From positions 736 to 64,735 of the forward strand of contig WJOT01000029.1 in NCBI GenBank assembly GCA_009619095.1: a stretch of 64,000 bases of DNA. The letters run 5' to 3'. Positions 7,931 through 54,780 of the stretch are shown here, piece after piece (the first letter of the stretch is position 1; every line of letters starts with the position of its first letter). The translations under genes were made by a program, and so were the position numbers. The DNA comes from Clostridia bacterium (GTDB lineage: Bacteria > UBA6262 > WVXT01). The notes beneath the pieces were generated by a model. The model saw only the letters and a program-made list of their open reading frames with translations. It did not search any database and was not told where the DNA came from.

Positions 7931-7967
7931 TTATTTTATTCTATTTCTATTTTTATTCTTCTCTCCT

Positions 7968-8100
7968 CCTCTCCCCTTGCGGGAGAGGGTTAGGGTGAGG
8001 GGGAATTGTTTCCTCTCCCCTCAATTTTGTAGCCGCAAAGCGAAGCTTTGCCTTTTATTATCTCCTCTCCCCTTGCGGGAGAGGATAAAGGTGAGGGGGA
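7968..8100. repeat. Two direct copies of a 37-nt CCTCTCCCCTTGCGGGAGAGG..GGTGAGGGGGA repeat flanking a GTAG hairpin
   Basis: Copies lie at 7968-8004 and 8064-8100, with GTAGCCGCAAAGCGAAGCTTTGC at 8029-8051. Related copies occur at 21361-21397 (inverted), 54706-54745 and 62150-62181. Confidence 0.7.
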
Positions 8101-9733: not shown

Positions 9734-10798
9734 CTAGAGGTTTTTGGAAAACTCTGCAAACGTTTTATGATCCGCGTATCCTCCTTTACTACAACCTCTC
9801 AAAAGCCTTTTTATTCGTTTTACTGTTTTTTTGCTTTTATCGACTATTATTATCTTTTTAAATTTTTTCTTTTTCCTCTCCTTCGTAACCCTAGATAATA
9901 TAGCTGATAGGTGATAATCGGTTGCAGTGAGAGAACAGCCTAGAAATATTAAACATTCAGCATCTTTTAAACTAAGATAACACCGTCGCCATAAGCCTTT
10001 CCAAAACTTATTATTAAAAAATTTTGTATAAAGGGGAGGAATAAAAAATCTGATCAACCTTTCTCTTTTAATGTTATAAGTTCTCGGAACCCGTGACATT
10101 ATTATTTTAGATGGTGGACGTCTCGATAAAACATCATCCAGTTTGGACATTTTCCCTTTTGCAAACCAATTTAATGATCCATGAGGTTTTAATAACCTCA
10201 CTTGATTCATATCCGCGAGTGGTTTTCGGTGAATATCATCGTACTTTATTTTACTTCTAGCCTCAAAACCATATCCTAACTCTGGAGTCCATCCAAAATT
10301 ACAAAGTTCGACATCAAGCAAAGTATCGTAATTCAACGTTATTAAAGTGTCTTTGCCAGAAAGCCTAGCGACCAATTTTTCATAATGATTAATGCTTTTC
10401 TTTTGATAATGGTTAGACTGAATATATATGAATAACTTGATCAATAAGGAGATAAAATCTTTGATTTCTATTCTATAACCAGGTTTTCTTGTTCTTCCTC
10501 TACTTTTTTTAAATATCTCTGGTATGTCTTTAGACATAAACAAGACATTAAATACATCCTCCATAGTGGGGTAATGTTGAGATGTAAGAAGGGTTTCGTT
10601 TATAAATGAAATTAGTCGTGAAAAAGAATTTTTATTAGCTTGTCCACCTTCGATTTTGACAAAGCGTGCAAGCATATCAAAATAATCTCTATTTAGAGGT
10701 AATCTAATATTGCCCGGCTTGATACTAGAAATAGCACCTCGTGAAGCACCCGCTCCTATAATTATCGTGGTTCTATATTCTTTTTTCTTAATTTTCAT
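9734..10798 (-). CDS. Stand-alone SIR2-like (SIR2_2 type) protein, putative NAD+-consuming defence effector
   Basis: Rossmann start IIIGAGASRGA, LITLNYDTLLD (Asn motif), LLKPHGSLNW (His motif) and FLGCSLTATDYH. This pattern resembles ThsA/DSR-type SIR2 domains. Confidence 0.7.
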   Translation of the reverse strand: MKIKKKEYRTTIIIGAGASRGAISSIKPGNIRLPLNRDYFDMLARFVKIEGGQANKNSFSRLISFINETLLTSQHYPTMEDVFNVLFMSKDIPEIFKKSRGRTRKPGYRIEIKDFISLLIKLFIYIQSNHYQKKSINHYEKLVARLSGKDTLITLNYDTLLDVELCNFGWTPELGYGFEARSKIKYDDIHRKPLADMNQVRLLKPHGSLNWFAKGKMSKLDDVLSRRPPSKIIMSRVPRTYNIKRERLIRFFIPPLYTKFFNNKFWKGLWRRCYLSLKDAECLIFLGCSLTATDYHLSAILSRVTKERKKKKFKKIIIVDKSKKTVKRIKRLLRGCSKGGYADHKTFAEFSKNL

Positions 10799-10802
10799 GA
10801 AA

Positions 10803-11021
10803 CTATTTCTTCTTGTACAGCGTTAATGTCACTCTGACAGAATTAGCCGACTTATTTAATAATTTTGCTATCTCTTTTGGTTTAAAACCAGCATTATAAA
10901 GAAGTCTCGTCTGATCTTTAAGTTCTTTACCATATGTAATCCCAGAGGCAATTAATTTAATCAAGGTATCAATCTTACTTTCTAAAACTTTGAAATCATA
11001 TTCTTTTCTTTTCTTCTTCAT
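10803..11021 (-). CDS. Small HTH protein, paralog 3 of 3
   Basis: Helical N-terminus plus KPKEIAKLLNKSANSVRVTL (HTH). I set the start at MKKKRKEY, 8 nt after the upstream stop. Confidence 0.5.
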   Translation of the reverse strand: MKKKRKEYDFKVLESKIDTLIKLIASGITYGKELKDQTRLLYNAGFKPKEIAKLLNKSANSVRVTLTLYKKK

Positions 11022-11029
11022 AATGCCTT

Positions 11030-11332
11030 CTATACCAGTTTTTTGGGATATTTTGTTCCCCATTTGCCTTTAATAAACTCTACAAGGCCTGTTTTCTGAC
11101 ATTCAATGCTAAATAGTCTTACGTTTTCATGTGATGTCTTCAATTTTTTTGCAATATCTTCAAGACTATTTTTACCATTAAACATTTTATACATTTGTTT
11201 CCTTTTACCTCTGACTTTGCTTAATTCTCCTAAAGCTTTATCCTTTTGAGCAGAGGCAATAATATTTATCCCTCGTTTTATATCTTTTAACGCTTCTAAG
11301 ATCTCTTTCAGCACTTTTAAATTTTCGTCCAT
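11030..11332 (-). CDS. Small HTH protein, paralog 2 of 3
   Basis: ATG at 11332 is preceded by AGGAGGTG. SLEDIAKKLKTSHENVRLF is the HTH, and the tail is YPKKLV. Confidence 0.55.
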   Translation of the reverse strand: MDENLKVLKEILEALKDIKRGINIIASAQKDKALGELSKVRGKRKQMYKMFNGKNSLEDIAKKLKTSHENVRLFSIECQKTGLVEFIKGKWGTKYPKKLV

Positions 11333-11352
11333 ATTTTCACCTCCTAACAAAT

Positions 11353-11658
11353 TTACAATTTTTTAGGAAATTTTGCTTTGCCGTAAGAAGCTTTTATTAA
11401 AGTAACAAAACTATAAGCAAGGAGCCCATCAACCACATATTGAATCGTGCGGCTTGTTTTACCAACTTTCTTAGCTATTTCTTTAATCTGTCTTTTCCCA
11501 TTGCATAAGTTTAAAACCTTCCTATTAACACCTGTATCCAAAAAATCATTTCTTTCTTTCTCAATATTACGTCTATTCGCTAAGACCAACAGTTTTATGC
11601 CTTTATTGATTTCCTGTAAAGTAATTTTTAATTCTTCATTTATGTCTTCCTGAGCCAT
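11353..11658 (-). CDS. Small HTH protein, paralog 1 of 3
   Basis: GGAGGTG Shine-Dalgarno. QIKEIAKKVGKTSRTIQYVV is the HTH, and the tail FPKKL is shared with paralog 2. Confidence 0.55.
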   Translation of the reverse strand: MAQEDINEELKITLQEINKGIKLLVLANRRNIEKERNDFLDTGVNRKVLNLCNGKRQIKEIAKKVGKTSRTIQYVVDGLLAYSFVTLIKASYGKAKFPKKL

Positions 11659-11934: not shown

Positions 11935-14900
11935 CTACTCTAAAATTGTTATGAACTCCGCAATGATTTTAAGTTCTCCTTCTTCACATCGCGGTAAGAT
12001 TATAGGTTTGTATGCCTTATTCAAAGGCTCAAGGATTATTTTTTCATGTTGCCAAGTACCATCCCGCTTAAATCTCTTTTCACTATAATATTTCTTAACC
12101 GTATAGCTTCCGCCTGTATCAATATCACCTATATCATGATGTTGTGCAAGAACTATTTTCCCTTGACGGCTTCCAACAACATCTGCGCTAAATACACAAT
12201 AACTGTTGTTGGGAATCTTCGGTTCCATGGAATAGCCTACGACTTTTGCAACGAACATCCTTTTATCCAATTTCCGCCCAATATCCACCTTCATCCATCC
12301 TTCAGGCTCCACGGCTAATCCATCGCCAAATTTTCCCGCGGCCGTCTCTAAAGAATAAATTGGTAATACGCTAATAAATTTTTCGCTCTCTTCGATCTCA
12401 CCATCAGAAACGATGTCACTAACAAATAATTCTGACTTTGGAAGCCTCTCCTCAATTATTTTTGAACCAATGCCAGGAAAATAATCATCGCTTACTCCGA
12501 CTGCCTTTCCAGCCATTTCATAAATGCTCTGTCCACGGCCGAAATAAGAATCATAAACATGCTGATATACAACATCGCATTTACTGTTGAACAGCTCAGG
12601 TGTATACCGTTCGGGCAAACCCTCTAAGGTCTCCTCAATTGCCACCCGCACAACCGCTCGAGTCTGTTGCCTCTTACGCCAATCAAGGACAAGTTTCTCC
12701 CGCCTAAGTGCCTGCAGCAGTTCTCGCGCCACCTTCTTAACCCGCTGCTTTTCTTTCTCGGTTAAATCCATCTCCGGCTTAGTCAATAAATCAAACACCG
12801 CTAGCTCCTCTTCCGTCAGTCCCCCAGCAATCGCTCGCTTTTCCTCCTCACCGAGCTCTTTTGCAAACTCCGTTAACTTCTTAAAGAAAACCTCCAGATT
12901 ATAAGCACCGGCATTATATTCATCTAGCATCTTCTGGAATTTTTCCATAAAATCCATCCTGCTTCTGTTCAGCCAAACCATCAATTTTAATTTTCTACCT
13001 ATAGCGCTCTTGAACTTTTCTGCCTCCATGCGTTTATGGCCAATTTTAAACTTTTCCTTCAACGCCTCAAAGTCTATCTTGCTTAAATCTATAAGACGGT
13101 CCTTCCCTTCGGGAGGCTTAATGACATAATCCGCAATCCTCACAGAGTCATCAAGCAATCCTTCAACCCTGCCCATTACCTCATCTATAGCCTCAGGTGG
13201 CGAGGGTTCTGGGCTAAGCAATCTAATCTTATTTGCAAGCACGACTATCAGTTTCCGTATAGAACGAAACTCATTCGCCAAAGGGTCTGGCAGAATAGCT
13301 TTATAAAGTCTGTTCACGACAGCAGCCAATGATAAATACTTCCTCTTTGATTCCTCATCAACGATAATCGACTCAACAGCATCGTCCAACAACCGTACAC
13401 GGCTAAAGCCTTCCGCTGCTTGAAACTCTGCCTGGAGTTTCAACAAATCAACGCCTCTCTCAATGCAGAATTCCTTCGTCTCCTTTACCGCTTCCCTTAA
13501 TAACTCAACAAGCTCACCTTTAGGCCTGACTGGTGTCTCGCCGCCTTCAGCCCCGGTACCATATATCGCCAACGCTTTTTGTAAATCCCTAAATACGCCG
13601 ATATAATCAACAATTAAACCGTTATTCTTCTCCCCAAAAACCCTGTTTGCCCGGGCAATCGTCTGCATAAGCGTGTGATTACGCATAGGTTTATCAAGAT
13701 ACATTGTGGAACAGCACGGCACATCAAAACCTGTCATCCACATCGCGCACACAAACACAATCCGGAACGGATCCTCTGGCTTTTTAAACTTGGTATCCAG
13801 ATCTTCCCTCACCATCCGCCTGCGATGCGGCGTAATATCCACGCCCTTCCTTCTAAGCTCTTCAATTTCATTTTGGGACTGCGAGACAACGACAGCCAAA
13901 TCAGTTTCTTTCATATACTTAAGCTTTTCCTCTAATTCTTCTTTTTCGATACCGTAACTACGCCTGATTTTTGCTTCTAAGTCACTTTTATATTGTTCCC
14001 AGTACTTTTGCACCTTATCATACATCTTAACGGCTGTGGCCTTATCAATACTAACCACCATCGCCTTCCCCATAAATCCTCGGCCCATAAAATGATCAAC
14101 AATATCCTCAGCAATTCTTTCTAAACGGGTATCACGGGTAATCACCTGATATTCCCTGCTGAACTCCCGCTCAACCCTTCTCTCCTGCTCCTCATCTAAC
14201 GCCGCCTCATCAAGCAGCTGTTCCATTTCCGCGTTTAAGTCTCTGTTAGTCAGCTGCAGTTCCGGTATTCTATTCTCATAATAAAGTGGTACAGTCGCCC
14301 TATCATCCGCTGACTGCTTGAAGTTATAAATACTGACATAATCGCCAAAAACCTCTTTGGTCTTCTCCTCTCCTGCAATAAGCGGCGTTCCTGTAAACCC
14401 TATGAACGCCGCTTTAGGGAGGGCATTACGCATATTCAAGGCGAAGATGTCATATTGGGTACGGTGGGCCTCATCGGTAATGACAATAATATCTGACCGG
14501 TCTGAAAGCTTGGAGTAAATGGCTCCTTGTCTTGTGTGAAATTTCTGAATCAACGTAAATATGTACCTGTGATCCTCGCGTAATAATTGCTTCAAATGCT
14601 CGCCGCTGTCAGCCTGCACATATTGCTCGGTTATAGCCCCCGCATTAACAAAATTTTTATAAATCTGCCGGTCCAGGGACTGTCGGTCCGTCACGATTAC
14701 AAAAGTATAGTTGCCGGGGATCGTACGCAGGATCTTCTGAGAGAAAAATATCATTGAGTAGCTCTTGCCGCTACCTTGAGTATGCCAGAAGACGCCAAGC
14801 CTTCCCTTTTCTTCCTCTATCCGCTTAAATTTCTCAATGACGTTATTTACGCCAAGATACTGATGGTTCTTTGCCATCATCTTAACAAGACCGCCTCCAG

Positions 14901-15681
14901 CCTCACTAAACAGAATAAAATTCTCAACTATATCAAATAACCGCTCTGGCTCGCACGTGCCCCGGATCATTGTCTCTAAGGAAACAACTCCCTTTTCTCC
15001 TTCGCTATTAATCTTCTTCCATTCAACAAAATTCTCCCACTCGGATGTTATAGTGCCAACTCTGCTTTGACTGCCGTTTGACAATATGATGATTGCGTTG
15101 TACAGAAAAACCTGGGGGATTGTCTCTTTATAGTCCCTAAGGTTTCTCCTGTAAGCGTGTTCTAATCTCCTGTGCGATGCCTTAAGCTCAATAAAAACCA
15201 AAGGCAGGCCATTTACAAAACCGACTAAATCCGCCCGCCTTTTATACATCTCCCCCGAAATCCAAAGCTGGGATGCCAGTAAGAAGTCATTGTTAGCTGA
15301 CTCATTCCAATCAATAACTTTGACTTTTATGTAGGTCTCCTCCCGATCATCGGTTGCCCTTCTTGCCAGTACTGTAACGCCATCCCTTAACATTTTGTAA
15401 ATCTCGCAGTTGGCGTAAGTAGGATTCATGGCGCTGCGGTCTTTGATGAGCTCTTCTATGGCTAATTGGATAACTGTATCGGGAAGTTCGGGATTGAGTC
15501 TTCGAAGGGCTAGTTTGAGCCTTTTGATTAAAACAACCTCGGATGTTGTCTCTCTACCCAATATACCGCCAGGACCCAGCGTCTCATCAAAACAATTAAT
15601 CGTCTCCCATCCTAAACGGGAAAAGAGCTCTATTGCGGGCTGTTCAACAAGGGAACCTTCTGTAAAGTTATTGTTCCTCAT
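11935..15681 (-). CDS. hsdR: Type I restriction enzyme R subunit fused to a C-terminal LexA/S24-like peptidase domain
   Basis: HsdR N-terminus (EQPAIELFSRLGWE), SF2 helicase motifs (HTQGSGKS, TDEAHR, QTIARANR) and a C-terminal extension. The last ~145 aa carry LPIYSLETAAGKF...VVGYSMEP...GKIVLAQ...YTVKKY, matching the S24 Ser/Lys fold. Confidence 0.9.
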   Translation of the reverse strand: MRNNNFTEGSLVEQPAIELFSRLGWETINCFDETLGPGGILGRETTSEVVLIKRLKLALRRLNPELPDTVIQLAIEELIKDRSAMNPTYANCEIYKMLRDGVTVLARRATDDREETYIKVKVIDWNESANNDFLLASQLWISGEMYKRRADLVGFVNGLPLVFIELKASHRRLEHAYRRNLRDYKETIPQVFLYNAIIILSNGSQSRVGTITSEWENFVEWKKINSEGEKGVVSLETMIRGTCEPERLFDIVENFILFSEAGGGLVKMMAKNHQYLGVNNVIEKFKRIEEEKGRLGVFWHTQGSGKSYSMIFFSQKILRTIPGNYTFVIVTDRQSLDRQIYKNFVNAGAITEQYVQADSGEHLKQLLREDHRYIFTLIQKFHTRQGAIYSKLSDRSDIIVITDEAHRTQYDIFALNMRNALPKAAFIGFTGTPLIAGEEKTKEVFGDYVSIYNFKQSADDRATVPLYYENRIPELQLTNRDLNAEMEQLLDEAALDEEQERRVEREFSREYQVITRDTRLERIAEDIVDHFMGRGFMGKAMVVSIDKATAVKMYDKVQKYWEQYKSDLEAKIRRSYGIEKEELEEKLKYMKETDLAVVVSQSQNEIEELRRKGVDITPHRRRMVREDLDTKFKKPEDPFRIVFVCAMWMTGFDVPCCSTMYLDKPMRNHTLMQTIARANRVFGEKNNGLIVDYIGVFRDLQKALAIYGTGAEGGETPVRPKGELVELLREAVKETKEFCIERGVDLLKLQAEFQAAEGFSRVRLLDDAVESIIVDEESKRKYLSLAAVVNRLYKAILPDPLANEFRSIRKLIVVLANKIRLLSPEPSPPEAIDEVMGRVEGLLDDSVRIADYVIKPPEGKDRLIDLSKIDFEALKEKFKIGHKRMEAEKFKSAIGRKLKLMVWLNRSRMDFMEKFQKMLDEYNAGAYNLEVFFKKLTEFAKELGEEEKRAIAGGLTEEELAVFDLLTKPEMDLTEKEKQRVKKVARELLQALRREKLVLDWRKRQQTRAVVRVAIEETLEGLPERYTPELFNSKCDVVYQHVYDSYFGRGQSIYEMAGKAVGVSDDYFPGIGSKIIEERLPKSELFVSDIVSDGEIEESEKFISVLPIYSLETAAGKFGDGLAVEPEGWMKVDIGRKLDKRMFVAKVVGYSMEPKIPNNSYCVFSADVVGSRQGKIVLAQHHDIGDIDTGGSYTVKKYYSEKRFKRDGTWQHEKIILEPLNKAYKPIILPRCEEGELKIIAEFITILE

Positions 15682-16931
15682 TCGGCAAGTTCTCCAACAT
15701 CTATATCCAAATCTTCAACATCTATTTCGCCTGAGATAAGTTTAGGGAGCAAAAGGTCACGAGTTTGGCGCAGGTTTTTTTGTTCAAAATATCCAACAGT
15801 AATTCTTTTCAGCATTGGTTCAATTGATTCATTAAACCTTGTAACAATGTCTTTTGGTGGTAAAATGACGGACATTTCGGCCAATCCCTCATCCCAAACT
15901 GCATACGGCATCGTGCTTCCTTTTGAATGACTATTAGCATAATTTATCGTTGATTCTTGAAACAGAGTTAATACAGAATATGCATAATAGTTGGAATCAT
16001 TAGGTCTTAAAATAAAACAAGTTGTTCTTGTAGTTCCATTAAAAGGTGCTATTACTACTTTATGGAAATATGACCGCATTGCCCCAAATAATACATCGTA
16101 CTTTTTAAATCGTATTAAACTGCTTTTAGCCTCGGAACCAGGTTTGGAAGTATTAAGATACAATGATTTACGTGGTAGACAATCGATTGGGACATAAGGA
16201 ATTTTTAAAAGGTGATTGCCAGATTTTTCAGATTGTTTTATGTTTGATACAAGATTTTTTAACTTCTTCACCTCCCACCCCTCCGGAATCTTGCCCAAAG
16301 GGGAATCAACCATTCTCGCTTTTTCGTGGCCGGGGAATCTAAACTTAACAAACCACTCCTGATATATTGTCTGGGCCATCTCTTCCAAAATCTTGATCCG
16401 GCGGCTGTTGTTCTCGATCAGGTCATCGTAGACGGAGAGGATGGAGACGATTTTGCGTTGGGTGGGGAAAAGGGGGAGATCTACAGGAACACGAAAAAGC
16501 ACATTCACCGTGAGATAAGGGACTGATGTCCCAGTCGCCAAACCGGGAAGCCCAATTTGGCCGAGCAGATAGTAGAGGTAGCGCCGGTCTATCACATCAG
16601 CATTGGCGAGTGCCCCCATCATGTTGTTGTCAATGATGGTCGCGCGAGTAAGCAGTCGGACTCTGTTCTGTTTTAGTGCTTCCCCGATCTTGGCAAAAAC
16701 AGGTGTTCCGGCGGGTAAGGGTTTTGCCTTAAGCTCCCCAAGTTGGTCCGTCGATACCCAGTTGTTTGCTTCGTTGATGTGAACCTCGTTTCCTCCAAGG
16801 TTCATGTCGCTTACCTTGATGAAAGGGAAGTCCCCAGAAGTTGCGCCCTGGTATTCCTGAGGAAAAGCCGAGCCTGCTTGAAACCTGCAAAGGTCGCCAA
16901 GCGTTAACTTGCTATTGCCAGCGAAAGTCAT
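15678..16931 (-). CDS. hsdS: Type I restriction-modification specificity subunit
   Basis: Two target-recognition domains are separated by conserved helical spacers ([29 protein letters not shown]; [16 protein letters not shown]). 4-nt overlaps with hsdM and hsdR. Confidence 0.85.
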
Positions 16932-18472
16932 CGCTCCCCCTCCAGCAATTCCGAAATATTCTTTCCAATCCGCCCTTCCATTTTCCGTGCCTCGCTGTTC
17001 AATCCTTCCATTTCTTTATTTAATTCCTCAATCCGCTCAGTAAAATCAAAATCCTCTTCTTCTCTTTCAGCTACGCCAACATATCGCCCTGGATTAAGGC
17101 TCCATCCGTTCTTTTTAATCTCTTCTATTGTCGCTACCTTACAAAGGCCGGCTATATCAGCGTACTTTCCTTTGGGAAATTTCTCCTTCATCATCTTATC
17201 GCTACCATTAACGTTTTCTGGCTTCTCGCCACGATAGAGCCTTGCAATATTTGCCAAAAACTCAATCTGTGCTGGGGTAAATTCTCTATGGGCGCGGTCT
17301 ATCTGGTGATAAATATGGCGGGCATCAATAAAAAGAACCTTGTCCTTACACGGGGTTTTCTTTTTACCTTTATCCAAAAACCAAAGCGCACAAGGAAGAA
17401 CGACCGTAGAAAAGAAATTAGGACCAATCGACACCATCACATCCACTGCGCGGTCTTCAATCAGCCTTTTTCTAATTTCAAGCTCAGAAGCACGGGCATC
17501 AGCCGCAGCGTTAGCCATAACAAATCCTGCCCTGCCTTTGGAATTCAATGCACTATAGAATATCTGAATCCATAAATAGTTCGCGTTATCAGTCGAAGGC
17601 ATGCCAAAAGGAAAGCGCGGGTCATCCTTTATCTTATCTTTATCCACGCCGTCTACATTAAACGGGGGATTAGCCATTGCAAAATCAAACTTTCCTAAAC
17701 TATTATGCACGTCTTCATAATATGTGTTGCCCTGCCTAATATCCCCAGATAAGCCGTGGACCGCAAGGTTCATCTTGCTAAGCCGAATAGTATCAGCGAC
17801 CCTTTCTTCGCCATACGCCATGATCTCCGCGCTTGGATTCTTTTTGTGGTTTTCGACAAAGTGGGCGCTTTGCACAAACATACCGCCGGACCCGCAGGCA
17901 GGATCAAGGATGCGGCCGTGAAATGGCTCTATAATCCCAACAATAAGCTTAACAAGAGATGTAGGCGTAAAGAACTCACCACCCCTTTGGCCTTCGCCCA
18001 TAGCGAACTTGCCTAAAAAGTACTCATAAATCTTGCCGAAGACATCCCCCTCAATATCGTCTAACTTAAAGTTAAAGTTCCTCAGTAACACAAAGAGTAG
18101 ATCATTAGCGAAGCGGTTGTATGTCTTGGGCAGAACGCCTCTTAAATCCTCATTCTTCCTCTCAATAGCTTTCATTGCATTATTAACGGCTTGGCCGATA
18201 TTCGTCCCCTCAGGAAGATTCAACAGCCTGGAGAAGCGCGCTTCCCCTGGTAAATACATAACGCCCCTTGCCTGATAGTCTGCCTTGCCAATAGTCCTGC
18301 GCCCTGTTCTTCTGCCGGCTAGTTCTTTTTCTGCCTGGGTAAACTTAAAATCAGCGTACCGTAGAAATATCAAACCAAGCACCGGTTTTGAATATTCAGC
18401 GGAGGTTAAATGCGAATTAGCCCTCAGCTGATCCGCCGCACCCCACAACCTCTTCTCAATCTCTCCTGGCAT
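16928..18472 (-). CDS. hsdM: Type I restriction-modification N6-adenine DNA methyltransferase subunit
   Basis: HsdM N-terminal domain, the SAM motif [10 protein letters not shown] and the catalytic NPPF. Confidence 0.9.
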
Positions 18473-18626: not shown

Positions 18627-20615
18627 TTATCCTTTCTGTAAATTGCAGTATCGGTGACTTATCTTACCATTCTTTATTTTCGTTTTACCACCCTCTGAAT
18701 ATCTTTCTAAATGATCAACATGTGCATCTTCTATAAACACAATTTCATTACCACAAAGATGACAAACTTTATTCGCATCGTGAAGAGCTTTTTTCTCTTC
18801 AAAGCTATAAAAGCGACGGTCATTCTCAGGGTACCCTACAACTTCCCTTAACTTCTGAAACCATTTCTCGGTGCGTAATTTTACCTTTTGAGTATCATAT
18901 GTGCCTTTCTCTATAGATTCGATAAACGCCATATTTTTAGTCATAAGCTCAATAAACGCATCTTTGATGAGCATGGCTTTTTTTATAATATCTCGTTTTT
19001 CGTATTGAGTAAAGCCATACATTTGCACATCAAATATACCTTCGTTTATTTTATCTTCGCGATATCCATTGGCATCATCTTCATCACCTAACTGCCAGCG
19101 CCTAAAGGATAAATCGCCAAATACGGTTTGGCACAACTCTACTGAATTCTTAAACATAGCTGTCTTTTCTTCTTTCTGCTTTTCAGATATTTCACGATTA
19201 CTTTCCATATAACTGTTAAGGAAGCTTGTTAGTGATCCTTTATATTTTCTTTCAGTTAAATCTGTAAAAGCAAAAAAGCGAAGAATTCTCTCCATATCAA
19301 TCATCCGTTTATGAACTCCTCTAAGGCCTTGAATTCTTTGAAAATCTTTATTTTCAGCTAATGTTTTCAGTAGGTTATTAAAGCTTCCTCTATAAATGCA
19401 ATTGCGGAGTTCCTGTTCATTAAGTTTGACCGATCCCCGATTTAACCTTTCGAAGATGTCGAATTTAATGTCCTTATGGGATTCCTTTAAAATTTTAATT
19501 ACTCTGATAGGATAGTCGGCTATCGAATCTTGTAATTCCTCAGATAGATCTGTATAAGTTTTTCCATTAAGCTCCTTTAAAACACGAAGCCCAGTAAGTT
19601 TAAAGCCGTCCTTCTTCATGAAATTATAAAAGGTCAGCATCCTCTGCTGCCCATCAACTACTAATTCCTTTCCAGCATTTTCTTCTGCCACATAAATAAC
19701 AGGAATGGGGACCCTGAGCAAAACCGATTCAATAAGCCTACTTTTCAACTTTGGTTTATTATCCCAAATATAATAACGCTGAAATTCTGCACGGGCAATT
19801 AACTTCCCCTTGTCAACTTTCTCACATAAAAGTTTTATAGGAGGATCTCCTGCCTCTGATATAATCTTCCTATCACTTACGGGAATATCAAAGAAACCTT
19901 CCTCTTCAAGCCGCTCATCAAAATCTACATCATCTGAAGAAATGACCTCTTTTTTACCCCATAGTTCTTTAACAGGGGCGAAATAAAAGAACCGAGATAG
20001 AGACCGAGTATTTTTAAATGTGAACTTCTCTCGGAAAGATATAACAGCATTCTTGGTAAGAACAATCTGCTCACCCCAGCTTTTCTGCTTAATCGAGGAT
20101 ACATTGCCTAGCTTAAAAGCATCAATAATCTTATACCTGTGAGACAAAGATAGAATGCTCAGATTTTCCATGGGGCTATATACAAACATTAGATCATTTA
20201 TCATATTGGCATTCTGGCCTGTTAGTCTATTTCTCTCGGTGTTAGCAGAATAGAGCTTATTAAGAAGCTCTACTTTTTCGTCATCAGAATCGCATTGCAG
20301 AATGGATGTTACTAGCTTATATAGCTTCTTATCTTGCTTAAATTCCTGCATAATCCTACGCCATGAGCCCTGAGGTATTAGGGATCTTGCAGATGGCTCT
20401 ATGTCGGAATCTGCGATACCCTTAGCATGGCTATCGAGAAAGCGAATATAGTAATCGATGTCTTCGGGGCTTAGTTTTTCGCCGGAAGGAAGGATTTCAT
20501 CCCAAAATTCCCTGAACTCCTGACTTTGCTGTTCCCATATTTGCCCTGCATCTTCTTCGTTGAACTCTGTAAGAAATTGGGCATGTAATGCTTTTAATTC
20601 CGCTGTCTTGCTCAT
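18627..20615 (-). CDS. DUF262 (ParB-like nuclease, GmrSD N-domain) protein with a C-terminal HNH motif and a ~270 aa unknown N-terminal domain
   Basis: FQRYYIWD and VVDGQQRMLTF are DUF262 motifs. The C-terminus CHLCGNEIVFIEDAHVDHLERYSEGGKT..NGKISHRYCN is HNH. Confidence 0.8.
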   Translation of the reverse strand: MSKTAELKALHAQFLTEFNEEDAGQIWEQQSQEFREFWDEILPSGEKLSPEDIDYYIRFLDSHAKGIADSDIEPSARSLIPQGSWRRIMQEFKQDKKLYKLVTSILQCDSDDEKVELLNKLYSANTERNRLTGQNANMINDLMFVYSPMENLSILSLSHRYKIIDAFKLGNVSSIKQKSWGEQIVLTKNAVISFREKFTFKNTRSLSRFFYFAPVKELWGKKEVISSDDVDFDERLEEEGFFDIPVSDRKIISEAGDPPIKLLCEKVDKGKLIARAEFQRYYIWDNKPKLKSRLIESVLLRVPIPVIYVAEENAGKELVVDGQQRMLTFYNFMKKDGFKLTGLRVLKELNGKTYTDLSEELQDSIADYPIRVIKILKESHKDIKFDIFERLNRGSVKLNEQELRNCIYRGSFNNLLKTLAENKDFQRIQGLRGVHKRMIDMERILRFFAFTDLTERKYKGSLTSFLNSYMESNREISEKQKEEKTAMFKNSVELCQTVFGDLSFRRWQLGDEDDANGYREDKINEGIFDVQMYGFTQYEKRDIIKKAMLIKDAFIELMTKNMAFIESIEKGTYDTQKVKLRTEKWFQKLREVVGYPENDRRFYSFEEKKALHDANKVCHLCGNEIVFIEDAHVDHLERYSEGGKTKIKNGKISHRYCNLQKG

Positions 20616-21103: not shown

Positions 21104-21403
21104 GTGAACCCCCTTTCATATTGTTATTTTACTGCACCCCCGGCAGGAGGCAACGAGAATGGCACGGATTATGCCTCTAGTGTATATGTTTTCCACTTAC
21201 GTACGGCTCTCCTCTTGCATTTTCTTTTATAAATGCCTATTTTTAAATAAGTTAACTGTTTATTATATACCTCCTTTTGAAAGCATTTTAGCTTTAAAGG
21301 TTTTATATTTTTTTATAGGTTGTTACTGATTACGGGCATAAAGGTCTTGGGCGACCACTTTCCCCCTCACCTTTATCCTCTCCCACCAGGGGAGAGGAGT
21401 CTC

Positions 21404-54674: not shown

Positions 54675-54780
54675 AACTCCTTCACCCTAATCTTCTTCCC
54701 CCTCACCCTTCCCCTCTCCCCCAAGGGGAGAGGGGGTAAATATGTTACCGTCTCCCCCGAGGGGATAAATATGGTGCCGT

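Follow-up and report, generated by a model that had tools for sequence, protein, structure and literature searches.

A type I restriction operon with an extended hsdR gene

We have analysed here a 64,000-nucleotide stretch of DNA from a Clostridia bacterium (contig WJOT01000029.1 of assembly GCA_009619095.1; the whole stretch is referred to below as the window) that carries a type I restriction-modification (R-M) operon of the order hsdM-hsdS-hsdR. The last gene of the operon is an open reading frame (ORF) in which the restriction subunit HsdR is joined at its C-terminus, through an acidic linker, to a peptidase module of the S24 family to which LexA and UmuD belong (Table 1). The three genes are co-oriented, and hsdS overlaps both hsdM and hsdR by 4 nt. 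A preliminary description, made from the letters of the window without database searches, had read the product as a type I R subunit of normal length followed by a LexA/UmuD-type S24 domain, with the serine of GYSMEP and a lysine of VKKY as its candidate catalytic dyad, and each part of that reading is upheld by the domain scores, alignments and structural comparisons given here. The peptides that it quoted lie where it placed them, the segment 11938..12370 (-) encoding approximately residues 1105-1248.

Table 1. Coordinates in the window of the hsdMSR genes and of the parts of the HsdR-S24 product
Feature	Coordinates	Strand	Basis and remarks
hsdM	16928..18472	-	514 aa, first gene of the operon; Pfam HsdM_N and N6_Mtase; partial match to TIGR00497
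hsdS	15678..16931	-	417 aa, specificity subunit; two stretches of Pfam Methylase_S
hsdR-S24 fusion ORF	11935..15681	-	1248 aa, 143.7 kDa
HsdR body, residues 1-1058	12508..15681	-	Pfam, TIGR00348, motifs; C-terminal end like that of close homologs ('..YDSYFGRGQSIYEMAG')
Acidic linker, 47 aa, residues 1059-1105	12367..12507	-	Homolog alignment, composition
S24 (LexA/UmuD-like) module, residues 1106-1248	11938..12366	-	PF00717, profile against PDB, AF2 and Foldseek; spans cleavage-site region and catalytic core
Predicted scissile bond Ala1115-Gly1116, codons ('LETAA/GKF')	12334..12339	-	Alignment to LexA Ala84-Gly85 and UmuD Cys24-Gly25
Predicted nucleophile Ser1151, codon (GYSM)	12229..12231	-	Aligned with LexA Ser119
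Predicted general base Lys1196, codon (TVK)	12094..12096	-	Aligned with LexA Lys156

The HsdR body is complete and its motifs are intact, and from its sequence it is predicted to translocate and cleave DNA together with the M2S methyltransferase. The Pfam domains HSDR_N, SWI2_SNF2/ResIII, T1R_D3-like and T1RH-like_C cover residues 6-1041, the NCBIfam model TIGR00348 (hsdR) scores 510.9 bits against a cut-off of 284.55, and the PADLOC REase_I model scores 619 bits. The PD-(D/E)xK nuclease motif (D..ELK, 163-167) and the superfamily 2 motor motifs (Walker A GSGKS, 303-307, and DEAH, 403-406) are all present which, with the family score and with hsdM and hsdS alongside, places the protein firmly among the HsdR subunits. 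The nearest solved structure is that of EcoR124I HsdR (2W00), which the motor region matches at 104-105 bits.

Seven canonical close homologs stop 2-5 residues past the sequence '..YDSYFGxGxS[IV]Y', a position that corresponds in the alignment to residues ~1056-1059 of the window protein, which itself reads '..YDSYFGRGQSIYEMAG1058' and then runs on through the linker into the S24 module. The linker contains 11 D/E and 5 K/R residues and is without counterpart in canonical HsdRs. The fusion is rare within its own HsdR subfamily: among the 120 best full-length HsdR matches, all 119 other proteins (1041-1198 aa; P0230-P0348, among them those of Nitrolancea hollandica and Methanoperedens) lack PF00717, and although they are 64-69% identical to the window protein over residues 1-1058 and share its domain order, they are without the 190-residue extension formed by linker and S24 module. 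The GC content at third codon positions is 0.489 in the HsdR body but 0.342 in the extension, a value part of the way to that of the low-GC genes downstream, and the extension looks like a comparatively recent addition to a finished enzyme. One of the close homologs (P0321, 1198 aa) has an insertion of another kind, with a DUF559/PF04480 (Vsr-like endonuclease) domain placed within the motor domain between Pro/Gly-rich flanks.

The preliminary description had also raised the possibility that a frameshift merged two separate genes, and a lost stop codon or a chimeric assembly could equally have joined hsdR to a downstream S24 gene. The ends of the 119 closest homologs at the junction, and the shift in composition there, are in keeping with such an error. 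However, three contigs that were assembled separately (ENA ERZ3612385, Logan SRR2426729 and Logan SRR2426730) encode an identical 1248-aa product, the frame is uninterrupted across the junction by way of the 47-aa linker, and a C-terminal S24 module is likewise present on many other enzymes. A survey of HsdR homologs, which had been suggested as a check, also recovers the same architecture well outside the closest relatives, with full or near-full HsdR-S24 ORFs in metagenome-assembled genomes (MAGs) of Omnitrophota (L016), Elusimicrobia (L017, where hsdM and hsdS lie upstream), Fibrobacterota (L029), Deltaproteobacteria (L073), Acidimicrobiales (L034), Planctomycetaceae (L060), Acidobacteriota (L039) and Spirochaetota (L081), and fragments elsewhere that join T1RH-like_C to S24 (P0002, P0017 and P0019). 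Because the same ORF is found on three contigs and the fusion recurs in other lineages, we regard an artefactual origin as very unlikely indeed.

The S24 module and its predicted active site

PF00717 (Peptidase_S24) matches residues 1135-1242 with 36.2 bits in the context of the whole protein, and with 42.0 bits (E 8.5e-11) when the tail is searched alone; the gathering cut-off of this model, with which the preliminary description had proposed to search, is 23.3 bits, and the match is far beyond chance. The tail as a single sequence returns only noise from the PDB with phmmer, and with a profile of 81 tail homologs the only chains retrieved are those of LexA and UmuD (E about 2e-3). An AlphaFold2 (AF2) model of the tail, built on the alignment of these 81 homologs, has a predicted local distance difference test (pLDDT) score of 91.5 and a predicted template modelling (pTM) score of 0.85, and the top 39 Foldseek matches to this model are all λ cI, LexA or UmuD (E down to 5e-6, probability 1.00, template modelling scores up to 0.67-0.72). 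The best of these is a λ cI fragment that includes the cleavage-site region, and S26 signal peptidases enter the list only at E > 0.05, so the modelled tail has the β fold of the LexA C-terminal domain. By every sequence- and structure-level measure applied the tail is a member of the S24 family (PF00717), and self-cleavage is predicted for it.

The tail is nonetheless neither LexA proper nor UmuD. The part of the protein N-terminal to it is HsdR, with no winged helix-turn-helix (wHTH) domain, and TIGR00498 gives 13.9 bits where 110.95 are required; similarly, NF007621 (umuD) scores 15.9 bits against 110, and there is no adjacent umuC, the neighbours being hsdS upstream and small helix-turn-helix (HTH) ORFs downstream. 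PADLOC holds no model that matches the tail. Identity to LexA and UmuD is only ~20-23%, and clade-specific insertions, comprising a long hairpin around Lys1196 and conserved W, D and Y positions, flank the strand that bears the lysine.

For the catalytic residues, E. coli LexA and UmuD sequences were placed in the tail alignment and served as landmarks only. Against these, GYS1151M aligns with LexA GMS119M and UmuD Ser60, and TVK1196, the first lysine of TVKKY, aligns with LexA TVK156 and UmuD Lys97. The segment 'LPIYSLETAA/GKF' aligns with LexA 'LPLVGRVAA84/G85EP' if a one-residue shift is allowed, and the peptide LPIYSLETAAGKF, which the preliminary description had quoted, is the LexA-type cleavage-site region, with Ala1115-Gly1116 as the predicted scissile bond. 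Cleavage at this position would give fragments of 128.6 kDa (1-1115) and 15.1 kDa (1116-1248).

Conservation was counted over those clade members, clustered at 50% identity, in which the module is complete, 143 representatives in all. The serine and lysine are invariant in these 143 and in the 81 homologs, as are the glycine and methionine of G.SM in all 143 representatives; the P1 residue is Ala in 105 and Cys in 33, P1' is Gly in 127, and an Ala/Cys-Gly site is kept in about 89%. The scissile pair is Ala-Gly in LexA and cI and Cys-Gly in UmuD. The tail thus unites a PF00717 score, Ser and Lys at the aligned positions, and an internal Ala/Cys-Gly bond N-terminal to the core, and since all of these are conserved as in LexA, cI and UmuD, the module keeps every feature that S24 self-cleavage is known to need. 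On the alignments and the fold model, all of the sequence and fold elements needed for predicted self-cleavage are shown to be present and to be under strong conservation. In a mostly DUF3037-linked basal subgroup (P0054, P0060, P0061, P0071, P0074, P0075 and P0077) the predicted scissile bond is Ala-Thr in place of Ala-Gly, with Ser and Lys kept, and these proteins may differ in their cleavage or lack it altogether.

The likeness to LexA, λ cI and UmuD (MEROPS S24) therefore extends from the fold and the aligned Ser-Lys dyad to a cleavage-site region situated ~35 residues upstream of the serine, and with LexA and cI it includes an Ala-Gly scissile bond and a catalytic core that is C-terminal to its cargo, so that cleavage parts the two. 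The cargo is quite different, being a DNA-binding HTH domain in LexA and cI but a 122-kDa ATP-dependent restriction motor and nuclease in the window protein.

The wider S24 clade and the genomic neighbourhood

An exhaustive HMMER search with the 171-aa tail recovers 1,704 cluster representatives at E <= 1e-3, of which 146 are at E <= 1e-30. The top 150 matches include 55 proteins of at least 400 aa, 11 of them at least 1000 aa, and 53 of these 55 long members also match PF00717. The motif pair can be located in 145 of the top 150, and in 137 of these the module is at the extreme C-terminus, so that cleavage would almost always separate the S24 core from the enzyme body, as it does in LexA and cI.

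The proteins to which the module is attached, as seen in the best tail matches and in the 80 best related genomic loci, are almost all DNA-targeting defence enzymes. They include type III Res-like proteins, type ISP and type IIG enzymes (Type_ISP_C, Eco57I and MmeI), AlwI and LlaJI restriction enzymes and even Methylase_S, as well as mREase_IV-type helicase-nucleases (type IV), one of which has a HIT domain. DUF2075/SLFN-g3 helicases that match the PADLOC AbiO, Nhi and PDC-S41 models, DEAD+MZB (DrmA-like/DISARM-like) giants of 1,878-1,979 aa, and NERD+UvrD and PLD proteins complete the list of larger partners, and the smaller members of the clade are HTH-S24, DUF3037-S24 and stand-alone S24 proteins. 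At the best 80 of at least 582 loci the carriers are ~34 of DUF2075 type, ~10 HsdRs, ~12 of ResIII type and 6 of ISP/IIG type.

A profile made from a trimmed 14-sequence alignment finds at least 582 stretches that encode the clade among GTDB species-representative genomes, and the matches listed span Elusimicrobiota, Omnitrophota, Nitrospirota, Planctomycetota, Acidobacteriota, Bacteroidota (including the cultured Parabacteroides faecalis and Bacteroides ilei), cyanobacteria and one Methanosarcinales archaeon. In 2.9 million viral contigs there is a single distant match, and the clade is therefore not the phage-repressor branch of the S24 family, a further difference from cI. In a rough neighbour-joining tree the HsdR-linked S24 domains fall in at least four separate groups that are interleaved with domains linked to other partners, and the window S24 domain is about as near to DUF2075-linked domains (65-67%) as to HsdR-linked ones (70%), which argues for repeated and independent fusions.

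Two loci from the same Gammaproteobacteria MAG (OZ241870.1; L047 3857..8444 and L072 3469..8447) contain, in this order, hsdR, a gene for a YgjP-like metallopeptidase (PF01863) and, at the 3' end of the type I locus, a separate S24 gene of the same clade. Here the HsdR-S24 pairing is divided between genes, and hsdR is linked to two different peptidases, the YgjP-like protein being a second and unrelated peptidase of another fold and catalytic type that is encoded by a separate gene and is not present in the window. At three further loci (L006, with P0009; L020, with P0021; and L038) short S24 proteins are encoded on long contigs with only a C-terminal stub of the partner, either a DUF2075 helicase or a type III/RE_endonuc nuclease, ahead of the S24 domain, and these may be decayed or split fusions.

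The MutS encoded in the window is no more than 53% identical to any counterpart in the species-representative genomes, the best matches being in Nitrospirota MAGs, and the host belongs to an uncultured lineage. A 662-aa GmrSD_N and HNH protein (18627..20615, -) is encoded directly upstream of hsdM and is a candidate type IV (modification-dependent) restriction enzyme, which makes the locus a defence island. Downstream of hsdR, positions 9734..11658 (-) contain three small wHTH-like ORFs (101, 106 and 86 aa) that look paralogous by eye, the first of them (101 aa) with weak CasR/Csa3-like PADLOC matches, followed by a SIR2_2 protein of 354 aa (PADLOC SIR2, E 8e-10). The GC content of this block is 0.31-0.33 against 0.44 for hsdMSR, and it has the look of a candidate defence module of its own, gained by horizontal transfer. 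The wHTH and SIR2 genes were considered as possible partners or substrates of the S24 module and rejected as conserved partners, as they are absent from all 80 related S24 loci. Scans for promoters, terminators and Rfam families near the 3' end of the hsdR-S24 gene were negative. A REP-like palindromic intergenic element (core CTCTCCCCTTGCGGGAGAGG) occurs in four copies in the window, where none is expected by chance, at 7966-8004, 8062-8100, 21377-21396 (-) and 54713-54732 (-); two copies are in tandem, 96 nt apart, downstream of miaB, and another is near the far edge of the defence island.

Possible roles of the module

The preliminary description had suggested that the tail could couple restriction to DNA damage, inactivate the enzyme itself or process a partner, and these hypotheses are compatible with the data. 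Self-cleavage of S24 proteins is latent, is stimulated by filaments of RecA on single-stranded DNA (activated RecA, or RecA*), and separates a cargo from a dimerising core. We favour, tentatively and at somewhat less than an even chance, a model by analogy with these proteins in which the S24 tail is an autoproteolytic off-switch for HsdR that is triggered by activated RecA and DNA damage, and which would provide a portable and host-independent form of restriction alleviation. HsdR would have gained a complete LexA-type autoproteolytic module at its C-terminus by way of a flexible acidic linker, and self-cleavage at Ala1115-Gly1116 would be slow at rest and stimulated by the RecA filament, the canonical S24 co-protease. 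Such filaments would form on broken DNA, including that produced when HsdR attacks unmethylated host sites after damage and repair, and also when the R-M system enters a naive host. Cleavage would free the 15-kDa S24 core, a part that serves for dimerisation in LexA, cI and UmuD', and would leave HsdR with a new C-terminus, ..LETAA-COOH, similar to the ..VAA found on cleaved LexA and to the ..LAA of the ssrA tag. The ssrA ..LAA is a ClpXP degron, and the work of Neher and colleagues in 2003 reportedly identified the C-terminal ..VAA that cleavage exposes in LexA as a ClpX degron. HsdR would then be disabled, degraded or both, with the M2S methyltransferase remaining active, and the arrangement as a whole would be a negative feedback that guards against autoimmunity. 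The other DNA-cutting defence enzymes that bear this S24 clade would be controlled in the same manner.

In favour of the off-switch, beyond the features of the module itself, type I systems are known to need proteolytic restriction alleviation: two sources (PMC4231737; PMC12707154) describe how HsdR has to be removed by proteolysis once DNA is damaged or a naive host is entered, with ClpXP acting in trans in EcoKI alleviation and other families using other, partly unknown, routes. The more recent of the two, a 2025 R-M review (PMC12707154), gives only ClpXP proteolysis together with an assembly-based mechanism for type IC systems. The outcome proposed for the window protein, with proteolysis taking out HsdR selectively while host DNA is in danger, is thus like that in EcoKI, but the EcoKI protease is a host factor that targets translocating HsdR in trans and does not belong to the general SOS functions, whereas the protease of the window protein would be built into HsdR and would presumably be triggered by activated RecA, any subsequent involvement of ClpXP through the ..TAA end being conjectural.

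Several observations weigh against the off-switch. Its cleavage, trigger and consequence are all steps that we infer, and whether cleavage would turn the enzyme off or on cannot be read from sequence; the HTH-S24 members L035 and L053, which might have hinted at the direction of regulation, have housekeeping-type neighbours and no defence genes. In the AF2 model, DSSP places the AAG motif in a short helix (model residues 15-23), whereas in LexA it lies in a loop. A motif scan of the 64-kb window for recA and lexA, which did not extend to clpX, identified neither, so that the co-protease and the degradation pathway are assumed to be supplied by the host. The alleviation logic is also less tidy for the ISP/IIG carriers, in which R and M functions are on a single polypeptide and destruction would remove methylation as well.

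The same sequence and structural evidence for an S24 module would serve equally well for a switch of the opposite sign, with the tail holding HsdR and the other carriers auto-inhibited or unassembled until activated RecA, formed during phage infection, brings about the cleavage that licenses the nuclease. The tail adjoins the T1RH-like_C region, where its bulk could block assembly, and in EcoR124I the C-terminal region of HsdR mediates assembly with the methyltransferase; moreover, the DUF2075 (Nhi/AbiO-like), NERD+UvrD and DEAD+MZB carriers are without obvious methylation-based discrimination of self from non-self, and these would gain from staying off. We nevertheless consider activation unlikely, in that a classical R-M system must cut incoming DNA at once, before it replicates, and a wait for activated RecA would be slow. 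Restriction would also be switched on exactly as unmethylated host sites arise after repair, the opposite of known restriction alleviation, and the 119 closest HsdR relatives do without any such licence.

Neither of these switches is involved if the module cleaves itself without a signal, as a constitutive maturation that yields two chains, or acts as a protease in trans on a second HsdR, a neighbouring gene product or a phage protein. UmuD is cleaved intermolecularly within dimers, and the S24 genes that lie separately near hsdR at L047 and L072 suggest that the module can act unlinked; the cleavage-site loop is, however, kept in cis in nearly all of the fusions, and no conserved second partner was found, as the small HTH and SIR2 neighbours in the window are missing from the other 80 loci, and we find this explanation distinctly unlikely. 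The module could also be non-proteolytic, a dimerisation or tethering domain, or one that targets the enzyme to RecA filaments or DNA ends, so as to pair two motors or recruit the enzyme, with self-cleavage irrelevant. Known S24 cores do dimerise, cleavage by type I, ISP and III enzymes takes place when translocating motors meet, and a binding surface could be made up by the clade insertions (the hairpin around Lys1196 and the W, D and Y positions). Scaffolds normally lose their catalytic residues, though, and the retention here of Ser and Lys in 143/143 representatives, and of the Ala/Cys-Gly pair in most of them, makes a purely structural role quite improbable.

The wider proposition that this distinct and widespread LexA-like S24 clade is a portable cassette, one that wires DNA-targeting immune enzymes post-translationally to sensing of activated RecA and DNA damage, whether as a fuse against autoimmunity or as an infection-triggered licence, has in our estimation about an even chance of being correct. 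Literature searches, together with a targeted reading of the 2025 EcoSal R-M review (PMC12707154), Millman 2022, Makarova 2013 and the Bacteroidetes LexA paper, turned up no account of an S24 domain fused to a restriction or defence enzyme. Database labels for such proteins are generic ('S24 family peptidase', 'type I restriction enzyme R subunit'). The window protein joins an autoprotease fold and a restriction enzyme, each known in its own right, in a regulatory combination that is apparently general and of which no description was found.

How DNA-cutting defence systems spare their own host is a long-standing question, as the risk peaks after DNA damage or in an unmethylated genome, and the only well-understood answer is the degradation of HsdR by ClpXP in the E. 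coli type IA and IB systems. If activation were the correct reading, the module would be a new type of infection sensor. If the off-switch is correct, a self-cleaving module that presumably responds to activated RecA would solve the problem independently of the host and move along with the mobile system, and could offer a compact damage-responsive protein off-switch for engineering. The recurrence of the module on at least seven classes of defence enzyme and in at least 582 stretches suggests that it may reflect a general principle.

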